From NCBI GenBank assembly GCA_902764145.1, contig CACWUS010000005.1, positions 4,207-68,206 of the forward strand: 64,000 bases of DNA, read 5' to 3'. Shown in pieces: positions 52,347 to 63,468 of this stretch. Source of the stretch: an uncultured Erysipelotrichaceae bacterium (lineage in GTDB: Bacteria; Bacillota_I; Bacilli_A; RF39; UBA660). The position numbers and the translations under genes were made by a program. The notes under the pieces were generated by a model. The model worked only from the letters and a program-made list of their open reading frames with translations. It searched no databases and was not told the origin of the DNA. How positions within the stretch are numbered: the stretch's first letter is position 1; each line of letters opens with the position of its first letter.

Positions 52347-55085
52347 ATGTATAAGAAATTATTTAAAATTAATTTTAATAATAAAAAAATATTACTTTTT
52401 TCTAGTGAAGAAAATAGAATAGCTTTTTTAGAAGTTACTAGTGATAATAAATTAAGATATATTACTCTCCAAGAATTTTTTGTTTTAAATAAAATATATA
52501 ATTATAAAGATAGTAGTATTTTATATGATATTAAAAAATTGTTTTTTGATGAAAAATATATTAGTAAAAATGGACTAATAAGTGTATTACTCGCAATTAA
52601 TCTTTTTAATTTAACTATGTTAGCTGCTCCTAGTATTGATAAATATCGAAATGATGTTAATTCTAGTTCATATGAAGAAACTACTAAAACAATGTACTCT
52701 CAAGGATTTACTACTGATTATGAAATTAAAAAGTACTTGTTAAATCAACGTTTTAATAATGAAAATATAAGTAGAGAAGATGTTATTGAAGCAGTTAATT
52801 CTAATGCTAATTTATCTAATCATGATAAAGAAATGGCTATTATGCAATTAGATTCAATGCTTAAATTAGATCCTGAAATGGATTTAAGAATTTACTATGA
52901 AAATTTAAAGACAATAAAAGTTGAATGGGTTTCTCATAAAAATTGGGATTTAAGTAATTCTGCAGTAGGATATTATTTACCAAGAGAAAATATAATTAGA
53001 ATTTTAAAAGGAACTGATAATCATGTTTTGTGTCATGAACTTGCTCATGCAGCTCATACATATTATAGAAATGAAGATGATGAAATTATAGAAGTTTTTG
53101 AAGAGAATTTTCTTACTGAAGCACTTACCGATGAAGCAACATTATATTCATATTATGAAGCTAGTTATGAAATTGAAAATAAAGTATTAAAGTTTTTTAT
53201 TGAAAATGCAAAAGAATTTAATACTTCAGTATATAATCAAAAAGGTATTCAAGCATTATTATTAGAATTAAAAGATTTATATCCAAGTGTTGATATTGAC
53301 TATATTTTTGATATGTTTGAAAATAATAGAATAACAAGATTAAATTTGGGTCAAAATATAGTTTTAGAGGATGAAGAAGAATTGTTAGATGAATTATTTA
53401 AGATTACAATTTTAAATATTGATGAAAATAATTTATTTTCTTCTTTTAATTCATTTGTGAAAATAATAGGTAATAATGATAATTTGTATTCTAAATATAT
53501 GAATAAGTATCTAGATGTTTTAAAAAATAATGGATATTTAAATGATACAGAATTATATAGTATCTCTTCTATTAGTAATTTTATAATTGTGGAAGACAAT
53601 ATATATTTATGTTGTGATAATGAATATTTTTATGATTATGAAGGAAATAAACAAAAGATAGAAAATGAAGATTATGTATTTCCTATTTCTCCTAAAATAA
53701 AATCAATTTTGATTGAGTCAATTTTAAAAAATGAAAATATATATTCAGAGGAATACATTAGTAAGTTTTGTAGTAGTGGTGAAATATTAGAAGGGTTTAA
53801 CTCTAATGAATTTACAAATGTAAGCAAAGAGGATTTAATTAGAATTTTAGATGTTGTTTTTAATATTAAAGTTGATAATGAAAAAGATTATCATTCAATG
53901 CAACAATCATATCTAGATTTTAAAAATTTTTTAACAAATTTTGGACATGAAAGAAAAGACAATGAGTTTTTTACAAATAAAAGGGAAATAGTATCTGAAA
54001 ATAGATATTTCAATATGTATAAAGATGCTTGTGTCGGTAAAGGATATATAACATTGGATAGATTTGATCTTGCAAATGAAATAACATCTTTTGTAAAAAT
54101 AGATGGTAAATTTTATCCGGTGACTAAATTTTTAACTAGTCCTGATTGTACTATTATGGGTGAAGACTCCAATCAAGTTATTAGAATAATTAATTCAGAG
54201 AGATTGATATGTGAAATTATTAATGAAGAAGGAAATAAGGATACAATTGAGCTATATAATGGAGTATTTATTTTTTATAAAATAAATGATGAAGCAAAAA
54301 TGAAACTGGAAAGCTTGTTTGCTAATGATGATGCTTTTGAACTCGATAGTATTATAAATGTGATTAATGAAGAGTCTATTATTACTCAAAGAAAATATGA
54401 AAATATATTTAAATTATCTAATGGAGAATCAATATGTGATAGGTCTTTAGATGATAGTTTTTATATCGAATTTGGTAAAGAAGGAAATAATATAACGTAT
54501 AGAATAAGCAGAAATAACAATAATATTTATTCATCGTGTGAAAATTTTGTTTCTTTGTCATCTAAAATAAAGTTTATTGATTTTCTAAATAGTATAGTTT
54601 TTTATAATGATGATGGTTTAGATAAAATACTAACTCAAGATGTATTGATAAAAACATTAAATGAATTTAGTAACATAATGCCTGAAGTAGAGTTTGTGAG
54701 AAAGAATGGCGAAATAGAATATATGGATCCTTCTACTAATGAACGTGTAAGAAAAATAGCAAATGAGGATAGTATAGAATTTGTTAATCCACCTATGGTA
54801 GTTATAGAAGGAAATGAATATTATGCTAGAAATGTTATGGTGTCACAAGATTATAGTACTAAAACAATTTATATGTATCTTCCTGATGGTAGAAAATATG
54901 AAGTGTTTAAATATGAGAATGAAGATATAGCTGAAGCTATGAATATTTATTTGGATGAATTAATTAATTATTATCATATTGAAAGTGAAAATAATATTTA
55001 TTATTATTCTCCACAGGAATTGATACAATTATTTAAAAATATGGAATGTGAATTATTTTTTGATACTGATGAATATATAAGGTGA
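52347..55085 (+). CDS. Large (912 aa) hypothetical membrane-tethered protein with zincin HExxH motif
   Basis: ~60 aa N-terminal segment, one hydrophobic helix, GYY...CHELAHAAH (53034-53048) and FLTEALTD. Confidence 0.6.
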   Translation: MYKKLFKINFNNKKILLFSSEENRIAFLEVTSDNKLRYITLQEFFVLNKIYNYKDSSILYDIKKLFFDEKYISKNGLISVLLAINLFNLTMLAAPSIDKYRNDVNSSSYEETTKTMYSQGFTTDYEIKKYLLNQRFNNENISREDVIEAVNSNANLSNHDKEMAIMQLDSMLKLDPEMDLRIYYENLKTIKVEWVSHKNWDLSNSAVGYYLPRENIIRILKGTDNHVLCHELAHAAHTYYRNEDDEIIEVFEENFLTEALTDEATLYSYYEASYEIENKVLKFFIENAKEFNTSVYNQKGIQALLLELKDLYPSVDIDYIFDMFENNRITRLNLGQNIVLEDEEELLDELFKITILNIDENNLFSSFNSFVKIIGNNDNLYSKYMNKYLDVLKNNGYLNDTELYSISSISNFIIVEDNIYLCCDNEYFYDYEGNKQKIENEDYVFPISPKIKSILIESILKNENIYSEEYISKFCSSGEILEGFNSNEFTNVSKEDLIRILDVVFNIKVDNEKDYHSMQQSYLDFKNFLTNFGHERKDNEFFTNKREIVSENRYFNMYKDACVGKGYITLDRFDLANEITSFVKIDGKFYPVTKFLTSPDCTIMGEDSNQVIRIINSERLICEIINEEGNKDTIELYNGVFIFYKINDEAKMKLESLFANDDAFELDSIINVINEESIITQRKYENIFKLSNGESICDRSLDDSFYIEFGKEGNNITYRISRNNNNIYSSCENFVSLSSKIKFIDFLNSIVFYNDDGLDKILTQDVLIKTLNEFSNIMPEVEFVRKNGEIEYMDPSTNERVRKIANEDSIEFVNPPMVVIEGNEYYARNVMVSQDYSTKTIYMYLPDGRKYEVFKYENEDIAEAMNIYLDELINYYHIESENNIYYYSPQELIQLFKNMECELFFDTDEYIR

Positions 55086-55138
55086 GACTTGAAGTGATAA
55101 GTAAAATTTGTTAAAATAATCTCGAATTGGAGGGAATT

Positions 55139-55606
55139 ATGAGTAAAAAAGAAAAATTAGCTGCTGCTAAAGAAAAATCTTTAGGTTTGTTTGGTGAATT
55201 TAAGGAATTTGTTAAAAGAGGAAATGTTCTTGACATGGCAGTTGGTGTTGTAATTGGTGGTGCTTTTGGAGCAATAGTTACTTCTTTAGTAAATGATATT
55301 ATTATGCCACTTGTGTCACTTGCAACTGGTGGACTTGATTTTACTAATTGGTTTGTTGCATTAGATGGCAAAACTTATGCTACTATTGAAGAAGCACAAG
55401 CTGCAGGTGCTGCAACATTAAATTATGGTAATTTAATTTCTGTAGTTCTTAATTTCTTAATTGTAGCTTTTTGCATCTTTATGGTTGTTAAAGCTATGAA
55501 TAAGTTTATGAAGAAAAAAGAAGAAGTAAAAGAAGAAGAACCACCTAAGAAACCTGATGATATTGTTTTATTAGAACAAATTAGAGATTTATTAAAAAGA
55601 AAATAA
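55139..55606 (+). CDS. mscL: Large-conductance mechanosensitive channel
   Basis: FKEFVKRGNVLDMAVGVVIGGAFG, NFLIVAF, LLEQIRDLL. Confidence 0.96.
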   Translation: MSKKEKLAAAKEKSLGLFGEFKEFVKRGNVLDMAVGVVIGGAFGAIVTSLVNDIIMPLVSLATGGLDFTNWFVALDGKTYATIEEAQAAGAATLNYGNLISVVLNFLIVAFCIFMVVKAMNKFMKKKEEVKEEEPPKKPDDIVLLEQIRDLLKRK

Positions 55607-55618
55607 CTTATTATTAAG

Positions 55619-56503
55619 TTATTTTTTTGTTATTATTTCTATTAATTTCCTTGTACTAAAATTTGGTATATGATTTTTAGATACTGCAATTCCAATGCTT
55701 CTTGGTGGAATTTTAGGATAAACATTTAATTCGTAAAGAGATTTATTTAAATCATCTTTAATGAATTCTTTTACTAAATAACCAATTCCCATATTAATCT
55801 TTGTAAATTCTTTAACTAAAGTATAGCTTGCTAATTCTATATTTGGTTTAAGTACAACATTATTTTTTTCACAAAAATTATCTAGTATACTTCTTGTATT
55901 AGAATTTTTTGTTTGCAATATTAATGGATAATTATTAAGTTCATCTAATTTTATTTTTTTATTTGCAAGGTCTTTATAGTTTGATCCAACTACAAAAATA
56001 TCACTAACTTTCTTGCATTCAATTATCTTAATATCTTTATCTATATTATTTGGAATATTTAAAATTATTAAATCAATTAAACCATTCCTTAGTTTATTAA
56101 TAAGTTCATTTCCTGCATTAGTTATTATTTGTATATCTATGTTTGGATATAATCTATGAAATGTTTCTAAATATGGTAATAAGAAGTTTTGTGTTAATGT
56201 AACACTTATTCCAATTTTTATTATTCCTGTTTCAAGATTAACTAGTTCTGTGAACTTACTTTCTGCATTATTTATGTATTCTATAGCTTGCCTAATATAG
56301 TTATAGAATTCTTTTCCTTCTTCTGTTAATATTACTCCTCTTTTGGTTCTAGTAAATAATTCTCCACCTAGTAAACTTTCTAACTTTTTAATAGATTTAC
56401 TTATTGCTGGTTGAGAAATATGTAATTCTTCGCTAGCTTTAGTAATATTATTATAATTAGCAACTGTATAAAAAATTCTATATAATTCAAAATCAATATT
56501 CAT
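55619..56503 (-). CDS. LysR family transcriptional regulator (paralogue of 20564-21448)
   Basis: NITKASEELHISQPAISKSIKKLE...LFTR HTH; divergent from the coaE operon. Confidence 0.92.
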   Translation of the reverse strand: MNIDFELYRIFYTVANYNNITKASEELHISQPAISKSIKKLESLLGGELFTRTKRGVILTEEGKEFYNYIRQAIEYINNAESKFTELVNLETGIIKIGISVTLTQNFLLPYLETFHRLYPNIDIQIITNAGNELINKLRNGLIDLIILNIPNNIDKDIKIIECKKVSDIFVVGSNYKDLANKKIKLDELNNYPLILQTKNSNTRSILDNFCEKNNVVLKPNIELASYTLVKEFTKINMGIGYLVKEFIKDDLNKSLYELNVYPKIPPRSIGIAVSKNHIPNFSTRKLIEIITKK

Positions 56504-56589
56504 AATAACCTCCAGTTATGATAAATATATCTAATATGTATTTTTATTATATCTTGTTTTCTTTTATAATACAAGTAGAGGAGAAAAAT

Positions 56590-57144
56590 ATGATAATAGG
56601 TATTTGTGGAAAAAGTGGTAGTGGTAAAAGTACTTTGGCAAGAGAAATATCATATATGCATGATAATGTTATACATATAGATATTGATTTGATTGGACAT
56701 AAAGTATTGGAATTAGATGAGGTTAAACAAGAATTAATTAATTCTTTTGGAGAAGAAGTTATTAATAATGGAAATGTTGATAGAAAAGTATTAAGTGATT
56801 TGGTATTTAATTCTAGAAATAAAATGAATAAATTATCAGATATAACATGGCAACATATGCAAACTATTCTAGATGAATTAATTAATAAAAATAAGGATAG
56901 AATAATTCTTTTAGATTGGATACTTTTGCCAAAAACGAAATATTTTAAGATTTGTGATTTTCGTATATTAATCGATGTTCCATTTGAAATAAGAAAGCAA
57001 AGAATTATATTAAGAGATAATATTTCACAGGATAAAATAGATTTAAGAGAAAGTGCCAGTATTGAATATGATTATAATGATTTTGATTTTGTAATAAATG
57101 ATATAAGTGATGAATTTAAAAGAAAGCTGGTGAAGATAATATGA
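56590..57144 (+). CDS. coaE: Dephospho-CoA kinase
   Basis: IGICGKSGSGKST, DIDLIGH, VDRKVLSDLVF; RBS GAGGAG before ATG 56590. Confidence 0.88.
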   Translation: MIIGICGKSGSGKSTLAREISYMHDNVIHIDIDLIGHKVLELDEVKQELINSFGEEVINNGNVDRKVLSDLVFNSRNKMNKLSDITWQHMQTILDELINKNKDRIILLDWILLPKTKYFKICDFRILIDVPFEIRKQRIILRDNISQDKIDLRESASIEYDYNDFDFVINDISDEFKRKLVKII

Positions 57145-57641
57145 CAAAAGTACTATATCCAGGAAGTTTTGATCCATTAACAAGAGGGCATATGAATATA
57201 ATTGATCAAGCAAGTGATTTGTTTGATGAAGTAGTAATTGCAGTTTTAAAGAATCCTTACAAAAAAGATAGTTTATTTACTGTTGAAGAAAGAATACAAA
57301 TGATTAATGAATTGTATTCAAGAATGAATAATATTAAGGTTATTAGTTCATCTTCTGCAGCTATTGATGTTGCACTATTATATGAATGTAAGGCTATAAT
57401 TAGAGGACTTAGAAGTCTTAGTGATTATGATTATGAAGTCCAGTTACAGCAAATAAATAAAGATATGTCAGATAATAAAATTAACACTATATGTTTATTT
57501 GCAGATAAAGAATATCAATTTATTTCATCTAGTATGGTAAAAGAAGTTATGAGACTTGGGAAAGATATATCTAAGTATGTTGATCCAATTGTTGAAAAAT
57601 CGATGATTCTTAAGAAAAGAGATATTTATGGAAGATTTTGA
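57141..57641 (+). CDS. coaD: Phosphopantetheine adenylyltransferase
   Basis: YPGSFDPLTRGH, IIRGLR..SDYDYE, FISSSMVKEV. Confidence 0.96.
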   Translation: MTKVLYPGSFDPLTRGHMNIIDQASDLFDEVVIAVLKNPYKKDSLFTVEERIQMINELYSRMNNIKVISSSSAAIDVALLYECKAIIRGLRSLSDYDYEVQLQQINKDMSDNKINTICLFADKEYQFISSSMVKEVMRLGKDISKYVDPIVEKSMILKKRDIYGRF

Positions 57642-58368
57642 AATTAAAATATTAGGCAGTGTATCCCCATTTTGTTATAAAAATAAAAATTGTGTTGGAA
57701 TTTTAATTTATCATAATAATCAAAAAATATTGCTTGATTGTGGAAATGGAATTACTAGAAATATGATTTTTCCTAATGATTTAGAGAATTTGAATGTTAT
57801 TATTACTCATTTGCATAAAGATCATTATGGTGATTTAAGTTCTATCAATTATGCTGCTTATGTATATCATAGTTATCATATGTTAAAAAACAAAATAAAA
57901 ATATATATTCCAAGTGTTAATAGTATGCAAGATGATATAAATTATTCAGAGTATTACGAAATTAAAAATGGTGAAATATATATTGGAGATTTAAAAGTAA
58001 CATTTCATGATAACAATTCACATGGCATAGAATCGTATATGATAAAAATAGAAAGTAAAGATAATACAATAGTATATACTTCTGATATAGGAAATACAAA
58101 TTTAGAAGATGTAATTAGATATAGTAATGAAGTAAATTTACTGGTGTGTGAAAGCTCATTATTAACAACTGATAATAGTAAATTAAATACTCATTTGCAT
58201 GCTTATGAAGCAGGAATTATTGCAAGAAAAGCTAAAGTAAAAAAATTAATATTAACACATTTTTGGCCATTAACAGATAAATATAATTATTTAGAGGAGG
58301 CAAAGCGATATTTTGATAATACTACTTTAGCAGAAGAAAATAAAACAATAATTTTAAGGAGAAAATAA
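57628..58368 (+). CDS. Metallo-beta-lactamase-fold phosphodiesterase (RNase Z/YhfI-like)
   Basis: LLDCGNG, THLHKDH, YTSD, CES, THLH, LTHFWP. Confidence 0.88.
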   Translation: MEDFEIKILGSVSPFCYKNKNCVGILIYHNNQKILLDCGNGITRNMIFPNDLENLNVIITHLHKDHYGDLSSINYAAYVYHSYHMLKNKIKIYIPSVNSMQDDINYSEYYEIKNGEIYIGDLKVTFHDNNSHGIESYMIKIESKDNTIVYTSDIGNTNLEDVIRYSNEVNLLVCESSLLTTDNSKLNTHLHAYEAGIIARKAKVKKLILTHFWPLTDKYNYLEEAKRYFDNTTLAEENKTIILRRK

Positions 58369-58371
58369 TAT

Positions 58372-58962
58372 ATGGAATCAAAAGATAGTGAATTGATAAG
58401 CAAATATTTAAATAACTTTAAATACAATGCATTTAGAACAAAAATAATTCTTAAGAAATATGAAGGCTTGATTAAAAAAGAACAACATGTTAATAAAGTT
58501 CGGGCTATTATTATTGATGATGGCAAAATATTAGTATGTAAGTACAGTGATGTTTTTATGTTACCGGGTGGTAAAAAAGAAAATGAAAGTGACATAGAAG
58601 CTCTTAAAAGAGAACTCGCTGAAGAATTAGGCATTATTATTGATGACAATTGTAATTGTTTATGTGAATATAACCAAATATACCCAAACTATTATGACAC
58701 TAAAACAAAATCAATAGTTGAAAGACACAACAGTACAAAATACTATTTAGTTGAAAAAAACAATATTATTGGTTATACTGAAAGAGATTTAACTGATAGC
58801 GAAATTAAAAATAATTTTGAAGCATTTTATATAGGACTAGATGATTTAAAGGATATGCTTACTTGTTATTCATCTTCAAATGAAAAATATGACTTTTTTA
58901 AAGATGAATTATTACATGTACTTAATATTTTATCTTCATCATCAAAATTAATATTAAAATAA
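58372..58962 (+). CDS. Nudix hydrolase
   Basis: PGGKKENESDIEALKRELAEELG Nudix box. Confidence 0.9.
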   Translation: MESKDSELISKYLNNFKYNAFRTKIILKKYEGLIKKEQHVNKVRAIIIDDGKILVCKYSDVFMLPGGKKENESDIEALKRELAEELGIIIDDNCNCLCEYNQIYPNYYDTKTKSIVERHNSTKYYLVEKNNIIGYTERDLTDSEIKNNFEAFYIGLDDLKDMLTCYSSSNEKYDFFKDELLHVLNILSSSSKLILK

Positions 58963-58980
58963 AGAAGTTGAGGTGATTAT

Positions 58981-59967
58981 ATGAAAGATTATAAAACGGC
59001 AGCTGATTATTATGCAGAAGCAGAAGACAAAGAAATTGCACTCGCAATAGAAGGATTAAAAAGAATAAGTGAAAAAAGATTTAATGAATATAAAAAGGCA
59101 AAAAGATTTATAGACTTACATACTCATACATGTTATTCTGATGGAGAATTAGAGCCAATAGAATTATTGAATCTTGCAGTTGATAAGAAAGTATCTACTT
59201 TATCAATTTGTGATCATGACACATTGGATGGTATAAAAGATGCTAGGGAAAATCATTCTGATTTTATAAAAGAAAGTGGTATTGAATTAATAAATGGTAT
59301 TGAACTATCTGCACAAGTTTCTAAAGGAATAATGCATATACTTGGATATGATATAGACATTTATAACAAAGATTTGAATGATAAAATTATAGAACTAAAA
59401 AACAATAGTATGTATTCTATGATTTCCTATTTAAATGAATTAAAGAATAACTATGGTATTAGATTTAAAACAGAGGACATACAAGAATTATTTAATATTA
59501 AGGGTAATTTAGGAAGGCCTCATTTAGCAAGATTATTAGTGAAATATAAATATGCTGTTAATATTCAAGATGCATTTGATAAATATTTAATTCAGGTATA
59601 TGAAAATGTAAGAGATTTAAATGAAAAACCAAGTTATGAAGAATGTATTTCATTAATAAAGAATGCTGGAGGTTATGCAGTGCTTGCTCATCCTTATTCA
59701 TTAAGACAAAGTAAAATAGAATTATTAAAAACAATAAAAGATATGGTTTCATGTGGACTCGATGGGATAGAAGTGTATCACTCAAATCATAGTCTTGATC
59801 AAATGAACTATTATATGCAAATGGTTCAAGATTATAATTTGTTATATACTGCTGGAAGTGATTTTCATGGTAAAAGAGTCAAACCTGATATCGAATTAGG
59901 AAGTGGAAAAGATAATAATTTAAATATCAGGTATGTATCATTGGTAAAAAAAATAAGCAAACGTTAA
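58981..59967 (+). CDS. PHP-domain phosphoesterase (TrpH/YciV-type)
   Basis: DLHTHTCYSDG, CDHD, GIELS, HILGY, GRPHLA, AHP, GIEVYHS, GSDFHG. Confidence 0.92.
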   Translation: MKDYKTAADYYAEAEDKEIALAIEGLKRISEKRFNEYKKAKRFIDLHTHTCYSDGELEPIELLNLAVDKKVSTLSICDHDTLDGIKDARENHSDFIKESGIELINGIELSAQVSKGIMHILGYDIDIYNKDLNDKIIELKNNSMYSMISYLNELKNNYGIRFKTEDIQELFNIKGNLGRPHLARLLVKYKYAVNIQDAFDKYLIQVYENVRDLNEKPSYEECISLIKNAGGYAVLAHPYSLRQSKIELLKTIKDMVSCGLDGIEVYHSNHSLDQMNYYMQMVQDYNLLYTAGSDFHGKRVKPDIELGSGKDNNLNIRYVSLVKKISKR

Positions 59968-60401
59968 AGTTTGCTTATTTTTTGTAATGCTTCTTTATAT
60001 TTATTTTCAGTAAATCCTAAAGTAGGTGCTGTTTGTACATGATATGGAGCCATTTCACTACTGAAATAAGCATCATCAATAACAATAAATTTTCCTACAA
60101 GGTTTTCATCCAAATATTTTTTTATTTCAAACTCTTTTCCATAATGAGATGTTCCAGTTTTGCCTAATATCTCTATACTTTTATCTAAACCAGAGTTATA
60201 TAAAAAGTCTTTATAGTCCATATGATTTCTCCATGAACTACATACAACTATCTTAAAACCAGTTTCTAAACATAATTTATTCAAATAAAAAATAGCGTCA
60301 GGATTTTCAAAAGTGCCACTAAAATTATCGGATTTGATATTAATTACTCCATCAAAATCCAAGAAAATAACATTATCTAATTCAGAATTATTATTCTTCA
60401 T
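59964..60401 (-). CDS. HAD phosphatase of the Swiss-army-knife RNA-repair-like type (HAD_SAK_2)
   Basis: FLDFDGVI, VVCSSWR, VIDD, GFTE motifs. Confidence 0.8.
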   Translation of the reverse strand: MKNNNSELDNVIFLDFDGVINIKSDNFSGTFENPDAIFYLNKLCLETGFKIVVCSSWRNHMDYKDFLYNSGLDKSIEILGKTGTSHYGKEFEIKKYLDENLVGKFIVIDDAYFSSEMAPYHVQTAPTLGFTENKYKEALQKISKL

Positions 60402-60479
60402 TTATCCCTCCACTCTTAATTTAGTATAACATATGAAATAATATTAATTCAATATTAGATGTTAAAAACAGCACGAAAT

Positions 60480-60508
60480 TTGACTTTTGAGGCTAATTGT
60501 GGTATAAT
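60480..60508 (+). promoter_or_regulatory. sigmaA promoter with extended -10
   Basis: TTGACT-N17-TATAAT with TG at -15/-14. Confidence 0.8.
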
Positions 60509-60514
60509 TTATAT

Positions 60515-60628
60515 GTCCTTTGGGATGGGGATATTAGGTTTGACTTATAAGATTGAGATATAAGTACCTAATAATATAAATACATTTTATTATCAGATAA
60601 AAGAACTATTCATTTGAATAGTTTTTTT
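60515..60628 (+). ncRNA. Candidate stand-alone structured small RNA (~115 nt), family unknown
   Basis: Bounded by a sigmaA promoter and an intrinsic terminator; 15 bp bulged hairpin at 60532-60573; next gene has its own promoter. Confidence 0.55.
60604..60628 (+). terminator. Intrinsic terminator of the candidate sRNA
   Basis: AACTATTC-attt-GAATAGTT plus T run. Confidence 0.75.
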
Positions 60629-60635
60629 ATTTGTA

Positions 60636-60664
60636 TTGACAAACTGTTCTGAAAATAATATAAT
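60636..60664 (+). promoter_or_regulatory. Consensus sigmaA promoter for the PfoR-like gene
   Basis: TTGACA-N17-TATAAT. Confidence 0.85.
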
Positions 60665-60705
60665 GTTATTAACAAAAAGTTAAAAACAAAAGAAAGAGGC
60701 GTTTT

Positions 60706-61776
60706 ATGAAAAAGAAAATTAAAAAAATATTTAATCACATTTTTATTGATGGATTAACAGGAATGGCATGGGGATTATTTTCAACTCTTATTATTGGACT
60801 TATTATTGAACAAATAGGTAAATTAGTTGGAGATTGTTTGGTTGGTAATACTTTAATAATGTTTGGAAAGATTTGTTCTATATTAACAGGTGCTGGTATT
60901 GGAGTTGGGGTTGCAATAAAATATAAGAGTTCTAACTTTGTTACTTTATCTGCTGCTGGTGCTGGTTTAATTGGAGCTTATGCAAGTAAAATAATAACTG
61001 GTAGCATATTTGTTAACGGTAGTATTGTATTGAGTGGTCCAGGTGAACCATTAGGTGCATTTTTAGCAAGTTTTGTTGGTGTTACATTTGGAAACTTAGT
61101 AAGTGGAAAGACTAAAGTTGATATTATAGTTGTTCCTCTTGTAACAATTATACTTGGTGGTGCGGTTGGTTTATTGGTGGGGCCTAGTATATCAAGTATG
61201 ATGAGTGCATTAGGTAACTTAATAAATTGGTCAGTGGAAAAACAACCTTTTGTAATGGGAATTTTAGTTTCAATTATTATGGGTATGATATTAACTTTAC
61301 CAATTAGTTCTGCAGCTCTTGCAATTATTTTAAATTTGAGTGGCTTAGCAGCTGGAGCTGCAACTGTTGGTTGTTCAGCTAATATGATTGGTTTTGCTGT
61401 TGCAAGTTATAAGGAGAACAAAGTATCTGGTTTATTATCTCAAGGGTTAGGAACAAGTATGCTTCAAGTTCCAAATATTATGAAAAAGCCAATTATTTGG
61501 TTACCAGCAATTGTAGCAAGTGCTATTTTAGGGCCTCTATCAACTATGGTATTTAAAATGACAAATAATTCTTCTGGAGCTGGTATGGGAACTTCTGGAT
61601 TAGTTGGCCAATTTATGACTTGGCAAACTATGTCAGGAGTAGAAAATCATTTAACTCTTTTAATTAAAATATTATTATTACATTTTATATTACCTGGATT
61701 AATTGCTTATGTAGTTTCATTTATTATGAGAAAAAAAGGTATTATTAAAGAAGGAGACATGAAACTTGAACAATAA
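60706..61776 (+). CDS. PfoR-family membrane protein (PTS EIIC-like, COG3641)
   Basis: GLTGMAWGLFSTLIIG, GPGEPLG, LTLPISSAA, QGLGTSMLQVPN, GMGTSGLVG. Confidence 0.88.
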   Translation: MKKKIKKIFNHIFIDGLTGMAWGLFSTLIIGLIIEQIGKLVGDCLVGNTLIMFGKICSILTGAGIGVGVAIKYKSSNFVTLSAAGAGLIGAYASKIITGSIFVNGSIVLSGPGEPLGAFLASFVGVTFGNLVSGKTKVDIIVVPLVTIILGGAVGLLVGPSISSMMSALGNLINWSVEKQPFVMGILVSIIMGMILTLPISSAALAIILNLSGLAAGAATVGCSANMIGFAVASYKENKVSGLLSQGLGTSMLQVPNIMKKPIIWLPAIVASAILGPLSTMVFKMTNNSSGAGMGTSGLVGQFMTWQTMSGVENHLTLLIKILLLHFILPGLIAYVVSFIMRKKGIIKEGDMKLEQ

Positions 61777-61841: not shown

Positions 61842-62297
61842 GTGATTACTTTGAATAAATACAATGATTTAATAAATGAATATGCATCTGATATATTAAA
61901 TAATGAGAATGTTTTAAGTCAAAAAAAATATATGCAACATGGTAATACTAGTACATATGAGCATACATATAAAGTTACTCTTGAAGCTTTGAAACTTTCT
62001 GATAAATTAAAATTAAAAGTTGATAAAAAAACGCTTATTAGAGGTTGCTTATTACATGATTATTATTTATATGATTGGCATGAAAATGATAAAAGTCATA
62101 GACTGCATGGATTTCATCATGCTAAGAAAGCACTTGATAATGCAAAGAGAGATTTTAATTTAAATAAAATAGAAGAAAATATGATATATACTCATATGTT
62201 TCCTCTAAATTTAAGAATACCAAAATATAAAGAAAGTATAATATTATGTGTTGCTGATAAAATTAGTGCAGTAAAGGAAACATTCAATAGAAAATAA
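61842..62297 (+). CDS. HD-domain phosphohydrolase
   Basis: QHGNTSTYEH, LLHDY, HGFHH, HMFP, ADK. Confidence 0.88.
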   Translation: MITLNKYNDLINEYASDILNNENVLSQKKYMQHGNTSTYEHTYKVTLEALKLSDKLKLKVDKKTLIRGCLLHDYYLYDWHENDKSHRLHGFHHAKKALDNAKRDFNLNKIEENMIYTHMFPLNLRIPKYKESIILCVADKISAVKETFNRK

Positions 62298-62829: not shown

Positions 62830-63468
62830 ATGTCAAAAGAAGAAAGTGTAATAAAATATTATTTAATTTGTAATAAATTAAAAGATGTTATTAGAACAGG
62901 TTGGAAAGATTGGAATGTTAAAAGAGATAGAATAGAAAGTGTAGCTGAACATATATTTGGAGTTCAAATGTTAGCAATAGCTATGAAATCAGAATATCAA
63001 TATGATATAGATATTATGAAGGTAATATTTATGATTGCTATTCATGAATTAGGTGAAACTGTAATAGGGGATTTAACTCAATTTCAAATTTCAAAAGAAG
63101 AAAAAGAAAAATTAGAGCATAAGGCAGTTCATGATATTCTTAGAGGTTTATTAGATGGAGAACAAATAGAAGAATTATTTTTAGAATTTGATTCTCATCA
63201 AACAAAAGAAGCAATATTTGCATATCAATGTGATAAATTAGAGTGTGATATTCAAAGCAAAATATATGATTGTGAAAACTGTGTTGATTTAAATAATCAA
63301 GAAAAAAATAAGACTTTTAAAAATGCAAGAGTACAACAACTATTGAGTGAAGGAAATTCTTGGTCATCTATGTGGTTAAAATTTGGTCAACAAGTATATC
63401 CTTATGATGAAAATTTCCTAGCAGTATCAAATTATGTCATCAATAATGAACTTAAAAGAGTTAAATAA
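62830..63468 (+). CDS. HD-domain hydrolase (YfbR/HD_3 5'-deoxynucleotidase-like)
   Basis: LKDVIRTGW, ESVAEH, AIHELGE..IGD, CDKLE. Confidence 0.85.
   Translation: MSKEESVIKYYLICNKLKDVIRTGWKDWNVKRDRIESVAEHIFGVQMLAIAMKSEYQYDIDIMKVIFMIAIHELGETVIGDLTQFQISKEEKEKLEHKAVHDILRGLLDGEQIEELFLEFDSHQTKEAIFAYQCDKLECDIQSKIYDCENCVDLNNQEKNKTFKNARVQQLLSEGNSWSSMWLKFGQQVYPYDENFLAVSNYVINNELKRVK

Follow-up and report, generated by a model that had tools for sequence, protein, structure and literature searches.

The 64,000-nucleotide stretch analyzed in this study (the window) belongs to contig C5 of the 50-contig, 1.45-Mb assembly of an uncultured Erysipelotrichaceae bacterium, which is 91.6% complete; the G+C content of the window is about 25%. 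It contains five genes lying head to tail, namely, coaE, coaD and the genes for a metallo-β-lactamase (MBL)-fold protein, a Nudix hydrolase and a PHP phosphoesterase, with the gene for a LysR-type regulator divergent from them (Table 1). An original prediction, made from the sequence alone, had described this gene order, the overlaps of 4 and 14 nt, the gaps of 3 and 18 nt and the divergent LysR gene, and the list of open reading frames (ORFs) bore it out. The arrangement is far beyond chance and recurs in dozens of species with tight spacing.

Table 1. Features of the coaE operon and its upstream region, with positions in the window
Feature	Position	Strand	Remarks
LysR-type transcriptional regulator	55619..56503	-	divergent from coaE operon; HTH_1, E 8.5e-21; LysR_substrate, E 1.8e-28
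Putative divergent promoter/operator region	56504..56589	.	lysR ribosome-binding site (RBS), AT-rich inverted-repeat block, TATAAT -10 element, coaE RBS
coaE, dephospho-CoA kinase (DPCK)	56590..57144	+	TIGR00152, 85.9 bits; PF01121, E 1.2e-22; P-loop GKSGSGKST
coaD, phosphopantetheine adenylyltransferase (PPAT)	57141..57641	+	4-nt overlap with coaE; TIGR01510, 167.8 bits
YhfI/BA1088-like MBL-fold phosphodiesterase (predicted)	57628..58368	+	14-nt overlap with coaD; Lactamase_B_2 match
Nudix hydrolase (predicted), operon specific	58372..58962	+	3-nt gap after MBL gene; PF00293 match
TrpH/YciV-like PHP phosphoesterase (predicted)	58981..59967	+	18-nt gap after Nudix gene; PF02811 match

The start of coaE was placed at the in-frame ATG at position 56590, which has AGAGGAG on its 5' side and TATAAT about 25 nt upstream; the longest coaE ORF would begin at position 56518 instead. 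No convincing internal terminator was found when the operon was scanned for terminators, and a scan of positions 55000 to 61000 with Rfam for a riboswitch or leader gave no match at E values up to 0.1. The LysR protein, made up of an HTH_1 and a LysR_substrate domain, has the features of its class, including the divergent orientation of its gene. The intergenic region between lysR and coaE, about 88 bp long, was strongly conserved in an alignment of 39 species, with the consensus AATAACCTCC AGTTAT..ATAAT.AATATGTATTTTAATTATATC-N12-TATAATACAAGTAG-AGGAGG and many columns conserved at 90% or more. We infer that this region is a putative LysR operator.

CoaE and CoaD both passed the curated equivalog cut-offs (85.9 bits against 65.55 for TIGR00152 and 167.8 bits against 103.3 for TIGR01510), and the motifs GSFDPLTRGH and ISSSMVKE were present in CoaD. 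The three hydrolases fit named families only loosely. The CoaE of the window scored below those of more distant relatives in the class (110 to 190 bits). The genome has a single coaD and a single coaE, both in the operon. The original prediction had pictured an auxotroph and asked whether coaA/coaX and coaBC are lacking, and they were lacking when the genome was searched: no match was found to the models of coaBC (TIGR00521), coaX or type III pantothenate kinase (PanK) (TIGR00671), and coaA or type I PanK (TIGR00554), all of which gave matches in control genomes. The model of type II PanK gave no match in this genome or in the control genomes, and its result thus has no positive control. In 27 of 40 other operon-bearing genomes, there was no match to CoaB or CoaC, and both halves were found in only 3 of the 40. 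All these genomes are metagenome-assembled genomes (MAGs), and the one studied here is 91.6% complete, so that gene absences are not absolute. This bacterium cannot make coenzyme A (CoA) from vitamin B5. Since CoaD and CoaE are its only CoA-building enzymes, its CoA must come from scavenged 4'-phosphopantetheine or a closely related precursor. There is a demand for CoA in the cell, with at least one AcpS-dependent carrier protein encoded in a dlt-like cluster on contig C31. Genomes of Mollicutes that have only PPAT and DPCK have been read as those of 4'-phosphopantetheine scavengers (PMC8721197).

Several variants of the CoA genes were seen in related genomes. In G012, a stand-alone coaB (L029/L088, 4001-4774; NF005231, 180 bits, cut-off 265) lies directly upstream of the operon. 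Stand-alone coaB genes upstream of or near the operon were also found at L099, L057 and L061, and several operon-bearing genomes had CoaB-like matches with no CoaC. At L122 (10533-11479), a second LysR gene is divergent from a gene for a CoaC-like flavoprotein. In G017 (L027, 5203-5529), coaE looks truncated or degenerate, its product having just 108 aa (31% identity by tblastn); coaD, the MBL gene and the PHP gene are intact there. Two genomes without coaD had sub-threshold CoaE-like matches within ORFs of 488 to 490 aa (G004:C12:37923-38408 and G006:C5:28823-29278), which are reminiscent of the HAD-DPCK fusions of Mycoplasma. A second "coaD" match in G019 was discarded, as it is probably not a PPAT; the adjoining ORFs look, by eye, like PnuC, nucleoside-transferase and kinase genes.

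The distribution of the operon was patchy. Within the genus, coaD was present in only 6 of 25 genomes, with coaE in the same genomes, and about 18 of the 25 had none of coaD, coaE and the MBL gene. Five of the six coaD-bearing genomes also had the MBL gene, the sixth (G014) having coaD and coaE with no MBL match. One further genome (G009) showed an MBL match at a contig edge and no match to coaD or coaE. At an E value of 1e-10, the MBL protein had no match in 16 more distant relatives. The CoA operon thus behaves as an accessory island within the genus, and the roughly 18 members without coaD and coaE apparently make no CoA and must import CoA or a late precursor. In G025, from the nearest other family, neither coaD nor coaE was seen. 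A search anchored on the Nudix protein recovered the complete five-gene order only in the closest relative, G019, with the five proteins being 66 to 86% identical. In G010, G012 and G017, the order was coaE-coaD-MBL-PHP, divergent from LysR and with no Nudix gene.

We then considered a wider sample of 80 loci, which hold the best MBL relatives in species-representative genomes as found with a profile of 13 MBL relatives. Most of them come from MAGs of "uncultured Bacilli" from guts. Neighboring genes were scored by tblastn; since contig edges cut off many of the loci, the counts are minimum values. The coaD gene adjoined the MBL gene in at least 56 of the 80 loci, almost always directly upstream. 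The PHP gene lay directly downstream of the MBL gene in at least 33, and a Nudix gene was found between the two in at least 4, besides the window and G019. A divergent LysR gene, with a product 40 to 72% identical to that of the window, adjoined the cluster in at least 50 loci. The coaD and MBL genes were no more than 20 nt apart in 49 of 51 loci, as were the MBL and PHP genes in 29 of 31, and this tight coupling persisted among proteins that had diverged to 40 to 50% identity. The five-gene synteny put forward in the original prediction therefore recurs, with Nudix being optional. The same Nudix family was also found as the first gene of an operon (L126; 37% identical to the Nudix of the window).

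In addition to being neighbors, the genes were found fused. At L102, Nudix and PHP are encoded by one ORF of 463 aa; when this ORF was used for a search, both Pfam domains were present in 48 of the best 120 clusters listed, and all three of the fusion contexts examined had a LysR gene divergent from coaE-coaD-MBL-Nudix::PHP. The Nudix of the window is 30 to 42% identical to the Nudix half of such fusions. An exhaustive MBL search revealed in-frame fusions of CoaE-CoaD-MBL (589 aa, adjoining a LysR gene), of CoaE-MBL (441 aa) and of MBL-CoaD (397 aa, on three contigs). Recurrent synteny, together with the Nudix-PHP fusions and those of MBL with CoaE or CoaD, indicates that the hydrolases are truly tied to CoA synthesis. 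Given the fusions, the co-occurrence and the tight coupling, which is predicted to be translational for coaD and the MBL gene in most species, the MBL protein very likely shares a pathway with CoaD and CoaE, and Nudix and PHP very likely act on linked substrates. As judged from the gene sequences, Nudix and PHP are a second coupled pair, often on a single predicted polypeptide. One MBL-CoaD fusion (P0283; L128, 4001-5194) has a context unlike the usual operon: it has no LysR gene and lies amid short ORFs without a family match, near SASP and fn3 genes.

The nearest solved relatives of the MBL protein were Bacillus anthracis BA1088 (1zkp, 3e-31) and Bacillus subtilis YhfI (6kns, 7e-29), with RNase Z/ELAC and Apyc1 being weaker structural relatives. 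Like YhfI, BA1088 and phage Apyc1, it is a single-domain MBL protein of about 250 aa with the HxHxDH motif and the other metal ligands: H61, H63, D65, H66, H132, D153, H189 and H211 were invariant in 13 relatives. The Pfam Apyc1 family was flagged on nearly all the MBL relatives. However, the MBL protein is only moderately identical to these proteins and fell below the cut-offs for class II cyclic-nucleotide phosphodiesterases (NF041851, 94.9 bits against 400; PF23023, 20.7 against 50), and its clade is tied to CoaD and CoaE by coupling or fusion. To our knowledge, YhfI has no linkage to CoA genes. Against RNase Z models, the MBL protein scored about 91 to 96 bits overall, with cut-offs of 252 to 293 (TIGR02651, 90.8 against 292.95); only two separate end stretches aligned, and its length is 246 aa versus about 300 for RNase Z.

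These relatives bear on a first alternative, in which the three hydrolases do general housekeeping on nucleotides and have nothing but the transcript in common with coaE and coaD. They would be a phosphodiesterase for cAMP/cGMP or 2',3'-cyclic nucleotides, a nucleotide 3'-phosphatase or nanoRNase, and a sanitizing Nudix enzyme, none of them acting on a CoA-related substrate. YhfI favors cAMP and cGMP in vitro (PMC9117128), the Nudix protein looks generic, and reduced genomes often mix housekeeping genes in operons. Moreover, 18 of the 80 MBL relatives were solitary, with no CoA gene nearby; they stood beside unrelated genes, among which no consistent partner was found. On the other hand, this alternative does not account for the in-frame CoaE-CoaD-MBL, CoaE-MBL and MBL-CoaD fusions, for the restriction of the MBL gene to coaD-bearing genomes of the genus (bar the match at a contig edge) and its absence from the 16 more distant relatives, for a coupling that stays tight despite divergence, or for a dedicated, conserved regulator and putative operator. 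We therefore consider it improbable. One of the stand-alone MBL relatives (L059, 3968-6088) is flanked by a HAD hydrolase gene and a gene for an orthologous HD_3 protein.

The Nudix box of the window protein, GGKKENESDIEALKRELAEELGI, fits the consensus GX5EX7REUXEEXGU and was intact in 26 of 27 family members. Nudix enzymes that act as CoA diphosphatases, such as Escherichia coli NudL, yeast Pcd1, mammalian NUDT7, NUDT8 and NUDT19 and Deinococcus radiodurans DR1184, are defined by an upstream NuCoA motif, LLTxR[SA]x3[RK]x3Gx3FPGG. The Nudix of the window resembles them in its fold, its intact box and its genomic link to CoA but differs in lacking this motif: the PROSITE pattern PS01293, [LM][LIVMF]TxR[SA]x3[RK]x3Gx3FPGG, was found in none of the 27 members, nor was a looser pattern. 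A caveat to this effect in the original prediction was thus justified and extends to the whole family. The family conserves positions of its own (K42-x-R44, Y58, T122, Y124 and N170-x-R172). The AlphaFold2 model of the protein was confident (pLDDT 81.6) but gave no pointer to its specificity, and its Foldseek neighbors were generic, at TM scores of about 0.5 (MutT-like proteins, Ap4A hydrolases and BdRppH); no CoA diphosphatase was present among the top 50 structural neighbors. Weak matches to RNA pyrophosphohydrolase models were also obtained. Nudix is an optional member of the operon and is absent from most operons.

For the PHP protein, the best NCBIfam match was the model of 3',5'-nucleoside bisphosphate phosphatases (NF041577), at 159.1 bits against a cut-off of 400; RNase Rnm (NF047791) gave 153.9 against 375. 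Its solved relatives are 9etk, RNase AM (7ug9, E 1e-23), 3e0f and Cv1693 (2yb1). It has in common with Cv1693 and RNase AM the PHP barrel and its insertion domain, R141, the base-stacking F161 (RNase AM numbering) and the complete set of nine trinuclear-metal ligands, which correspond to H13, H15, D20, H45, E72, H83, H198, D255 and H257. It differs from them by an N-terminal extension of about 43 aa, by the frequent fusion to Nudix in its clade and by the replacement of three arginines. These replacements were identified in a MAFFT alignment of 20 operon-type PHP proteins, including that of the window, which is a sequence alignment and not a structural superposition. R107 was replaced by Ser in all of them, R110 mostly by Ser but also by Ala, Tyr and Asn, and R201 by Ser, Thr or Gln; all four solved relatives have Arg at positions 107 and 110. 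In RNase AM, R107, R110 and R141 bury the 5'-monophosphate (PMC9410882). The equivalents of this 5'-phosphate cluster in Cv1693 are R99, R102 and R134, and R201 sits at the scissile or leaving phosphate in both enzymes. The loss of R107, R110 and R201 makes it doubtful that the PHP protein is a classical phosphatase of 3',5'-ADP (pAp), the role given to it in the original prediction. Its clade is probably neither a textbook pAp phosphatase nor a 5'-phosphate exoribonuclease, as suggested by the pocket residues. E. coli RNase AM is a 5'-3' exoribonuclease that also frees intact FAD from FAD-capped RNA (PMC9410882), so that the PHP fold can accept substrates with a 5'-pyrophosphate linkage. Elsewhere, the genome codes for an NrnA-type DHH/DHHA1 protein and for an ORF that resembles RNase J by its HGHEDH motif only. 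PHP is therefore probably an accessory enzyme and not the housekeeping nanoRNase or pAp phosphatase.

A second alternative, also raised in the original prediction, is that the genes form a module acting on RNA 5' ends. Nudix would remove a cap such as dephospho-CoA, or pyrophosphate, PHP would degrade or decap the 5' end, the MBL protein would be an RNase Z-like nuclease, and CoaD and CoaE would recycle the phosphopantetheine or dephospho-CoA set free. This is in line with the activities of RNase AM as a PHP relative (PMC9410882), with the weak matches of Nudix to RNA pyrophosphohydrolase models and the resemblance of its fold to BdRppH among others, and with RNase Z/ELAC being the second-best relatives of the MBL protein; a decapping enzyme fused to a 5' exonuclease would also be a logical pair. 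However, two of the three arginines that surround the RNA 5'-monophosphate in RNase AM are gone from the PHP clade, the MBL protein is far under the RNase Z cut-offs with only its two ends aligned, and the genome already has the RNase J-like ORF and the NrnA-type protein. In addition, the module comes and goes together with the only CoA synthesis genes, and the MBL protein is fused to CoaE and/or CoaD, which would be odd for RNA decay. This alternative thus has less support, and we consider it quite improbable.

Carrier proteins were also examined, as the original prediction had the MBL protein possibly releasing phosphopantetheine from them. Of 40 operon-bearing genomes, just 7 had a phosphopantetheinyl transferase (PF01648), and G010 (94% complete) and G017 had neither acyl carrier protein (ACP) nor AcpS. 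With the other 33 genomes lacking such a transferase, the MBL protein cannot generally free phosphopantetheine from the cell's own carriers, and AcpS cannot be a general source of pAp. Turnover of the cell's own holo-ACP was therefore rejected as a general role of MBL and PHP. In the genome studied here, the only AcpS gene adjoins the dlt-like cluster (C31:601-6377), which encodes an AMP-binding enzyme, a pyridoxal phosphate (PLP) enzyme resembling Orn/DAP decarboxylases and a carrier protein of 75 aa; by eye, an ORF of 524 aa looks MBOAT/DltB-like and one of 311 aa looks DltD-like. A decarboxylase-like gene would not usually be expected in a dlt operon.

These results also bear on the strict closed loop of the original prediction, in which Nudix splits CoA into 4'-phosphopantetheine and pAp, PHP removes pAp, CoaD and CoaE rebuild CoA, and the MBL protein frees phosphopantetheine from the cell's own holo-carriers. 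The auxotrophy, the synteny and the gene set agree with such a loop, and the Nudix::PHP fusions would suit the two steps from CoA to pAp to AMP. The best NCBIfam match of PHP points the same way, and the genome has AcpS and one carrier protein. However, the loop in its strict form met with several difficulties: the NuCoA motif was found in 0 of 27 Nudix family members, and Nudix is missing from most operons; PHP reached 159 bits where the pAp-phosphatase cut-off is 400, and its R107, R110 and R201 are replaced; a phosphopantetheinyl transferase was found in only 7 of 40 operon-bearing genomes, with G010 lacking ACP and AcpS; the separate NrnA-type protein could serve as pAp phosphatase; and the cycle would be energetically futile. 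We regard the closed loop as unlikely.

We favor a broader reading, to which we give about an even chance: the genes form a self-contained, LysR-controlled operon for CoA salvage and remodeling in reduced-genome gut Bacilli that scavenge 4'-phosphopantetheine, being unable to make it. The MBL protein would act just before CoaD, either to free 4'-phosphopantetheine from a precursor of the phosphodiester type or to remove a by-product. PHP, with or without Nudix, may dismantle the adenosine-3'-phosphate side of CoA-type nucleotides (CoA, dephospho-CoA or analogues that are acylated, damaged or wrongly made), which would leave the scarce pantetheine-phosphate half to be re-adenylylated by CoaD and re-phosphorylated by CoaE. 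LysR would probably turn the operon on in response to a ligand of the CoA family. The catalytic motifs of MBL, Nudix and PHP are intact apart from the arginine changes in PHP.

Several observations weigh against this favored reading. If CoA were made and cleaved by co-expressed enzymes, the cycle would be futile, except where the hydrolases favor non-cognate substrates. The Nudix protein, which is absent from most operons, lacks the NuCoA motif and has no CoA diphosphatase among its close structural neighbors. Without the two arginines that hold the pAp 5'-phosphate, the PHP clade may have a substrate other than pAp, and the nearest characterized PHP relatives include RNA exonucleases besides pAp phosphatases. 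YhfI, the nearest characterized relative of the MBL protein, prefers cyclic nucleotides, and the 18 solitary MBL relatives have no CoA gene nearby. Finally, absences of genes from MAGs are not absolute.

Parts of the system have counterparts elsewhere. The PPAT- and DPCK-only Mollicutes likewise have reduced genomes in which only coaD and coaE are left, with an inferred dependence on environmental 4'-phosphopantetheine, and in the HAD-DPCK fusions of Mycoplasma a phosphohydrolase is also physically linked to DPCK (PMC8721197). In Mycoplasma, however, the PPAT and DPCK genes have no consistent arrangement and the fused hydrolase is of the HAD fold (PMC8721197), whereas in the operon described here coaE and coaD overlap, are under a dedicated LysR and are joined to MBL, PHP and often Nudix. 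The presence of a phosphopantetheine-releasing phosphodiesterase and of opposing CoA-related reactions in one operon also has precedents. Phosphopantetheinyl hydrolases include that of the Mycobacterium tuberculosis pptT-pptH operon and E. coli AcpH; PptH is a metallophosphoesterase and AcpH is of the HD family, neither being MBL fold. Unlike these systems, most operon-bearing genomes have no phosphopantetheinyl transferase. A more specific, tentative reading, which we consider doubtful as a whole, is that the MBL protein would be a new, third structural class of phosphodiesterase generating 4'-phosphopantetheine to feed CoaD, and that Nudix::PHP would be a bifunctional enzyme that dismantles CoA-type nucleotides. 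The source for the MBL protein would be phosphopantetheinyl-serine peptides from the digested carriers of other microbes, or cyclic pantetheine phosphate.

Our literature search turned up neither this operon nor a cyclic phosphopantetheine phosphodiesterase. Earlier work has described the scavenging pattern as well as Nudix CoA diphosphatases, pAp phosphatases and YhfI. Apparently new are the conserved combination of such enzymes, their fusions and the altered pocket of PHP. The CoA module is real and apparently undescribed.

Other genes near the operon were also inspected. A gene for a HAD_SAK_2 protein ("HAD domain in Swiss Army Knife RNA repair proteins"; E 6.7e-20) lies at positions 59964-60401 on the minus strand, convergent with the PHP gene with a 4-nt overlap of their ends. 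It was not retained as a member of the module, being conserved only in G019 and found in none of the 80 related loci. Two genes for HD-domain phosphohydrolases, one of them HD_3/YfbR-like, are located 2 to 3 kb downstream of the operon (61842-62297 and 62830-63468, plus strand). The HD genes downstream of the operon and the HAD and HD_3 genes at L059 may constitute a loose nucleotide-hydrolase neighborhood. On the plus strand, positions 60480-60664 contain two near-perfect sigma-70 consensus promoters (11/12 and 12/12) upstream of an EIIC gene, with no Rfam match, and positions 52347-55085 encode an ORF of 912 aa with no Pfam match at an E value of 0.001 or lower. A role in defense was also considered. 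The PADLOC models showed no signature of a defense system: nothing was found for CoaD, MBL or PHP, and weak generic matches were obtained for CoaE, Nudix (candidate family PDC-S07, 33 bits) and LysR.

The operon bears on how bacteria with only PPAT and DPCK obtain and manage 4'-phosphopantetheine, in a field where bacterial CoA-degrading enzymes are poorly known. It supplies three candidate enzymes, natural fusions that lend themselves to biochemistry and, next to a conserved putative operator, a regulator that may sense a ligand, all from abundant uncultured gut Bacilli. With CoA synthesis genes distributed patchily and missing from most of its members, the genus also offers a natural experiment in cofactor dependency. 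Should the three enzymes prove to act on CoA-family compounds, the operon would represent a new salvage or repair branch of cofactor metabolism. Cross-feeding dependencies in the gut would thereby be explained, and functions would be gained for the large families of YhfI-like MBL and TrpH-like PHP proteins, which are mostly unassigned. If the more specific reading with a phosphopantetheine-generating MBL protein and a bifunctional Nudix::PHP enzyme were true, these two with CoaD, CoaE and a ligand-sensing LysR would make up a complete, previously unknown route by which gut bacteria deficient in the B5 pathway live on the CoA debris of others.

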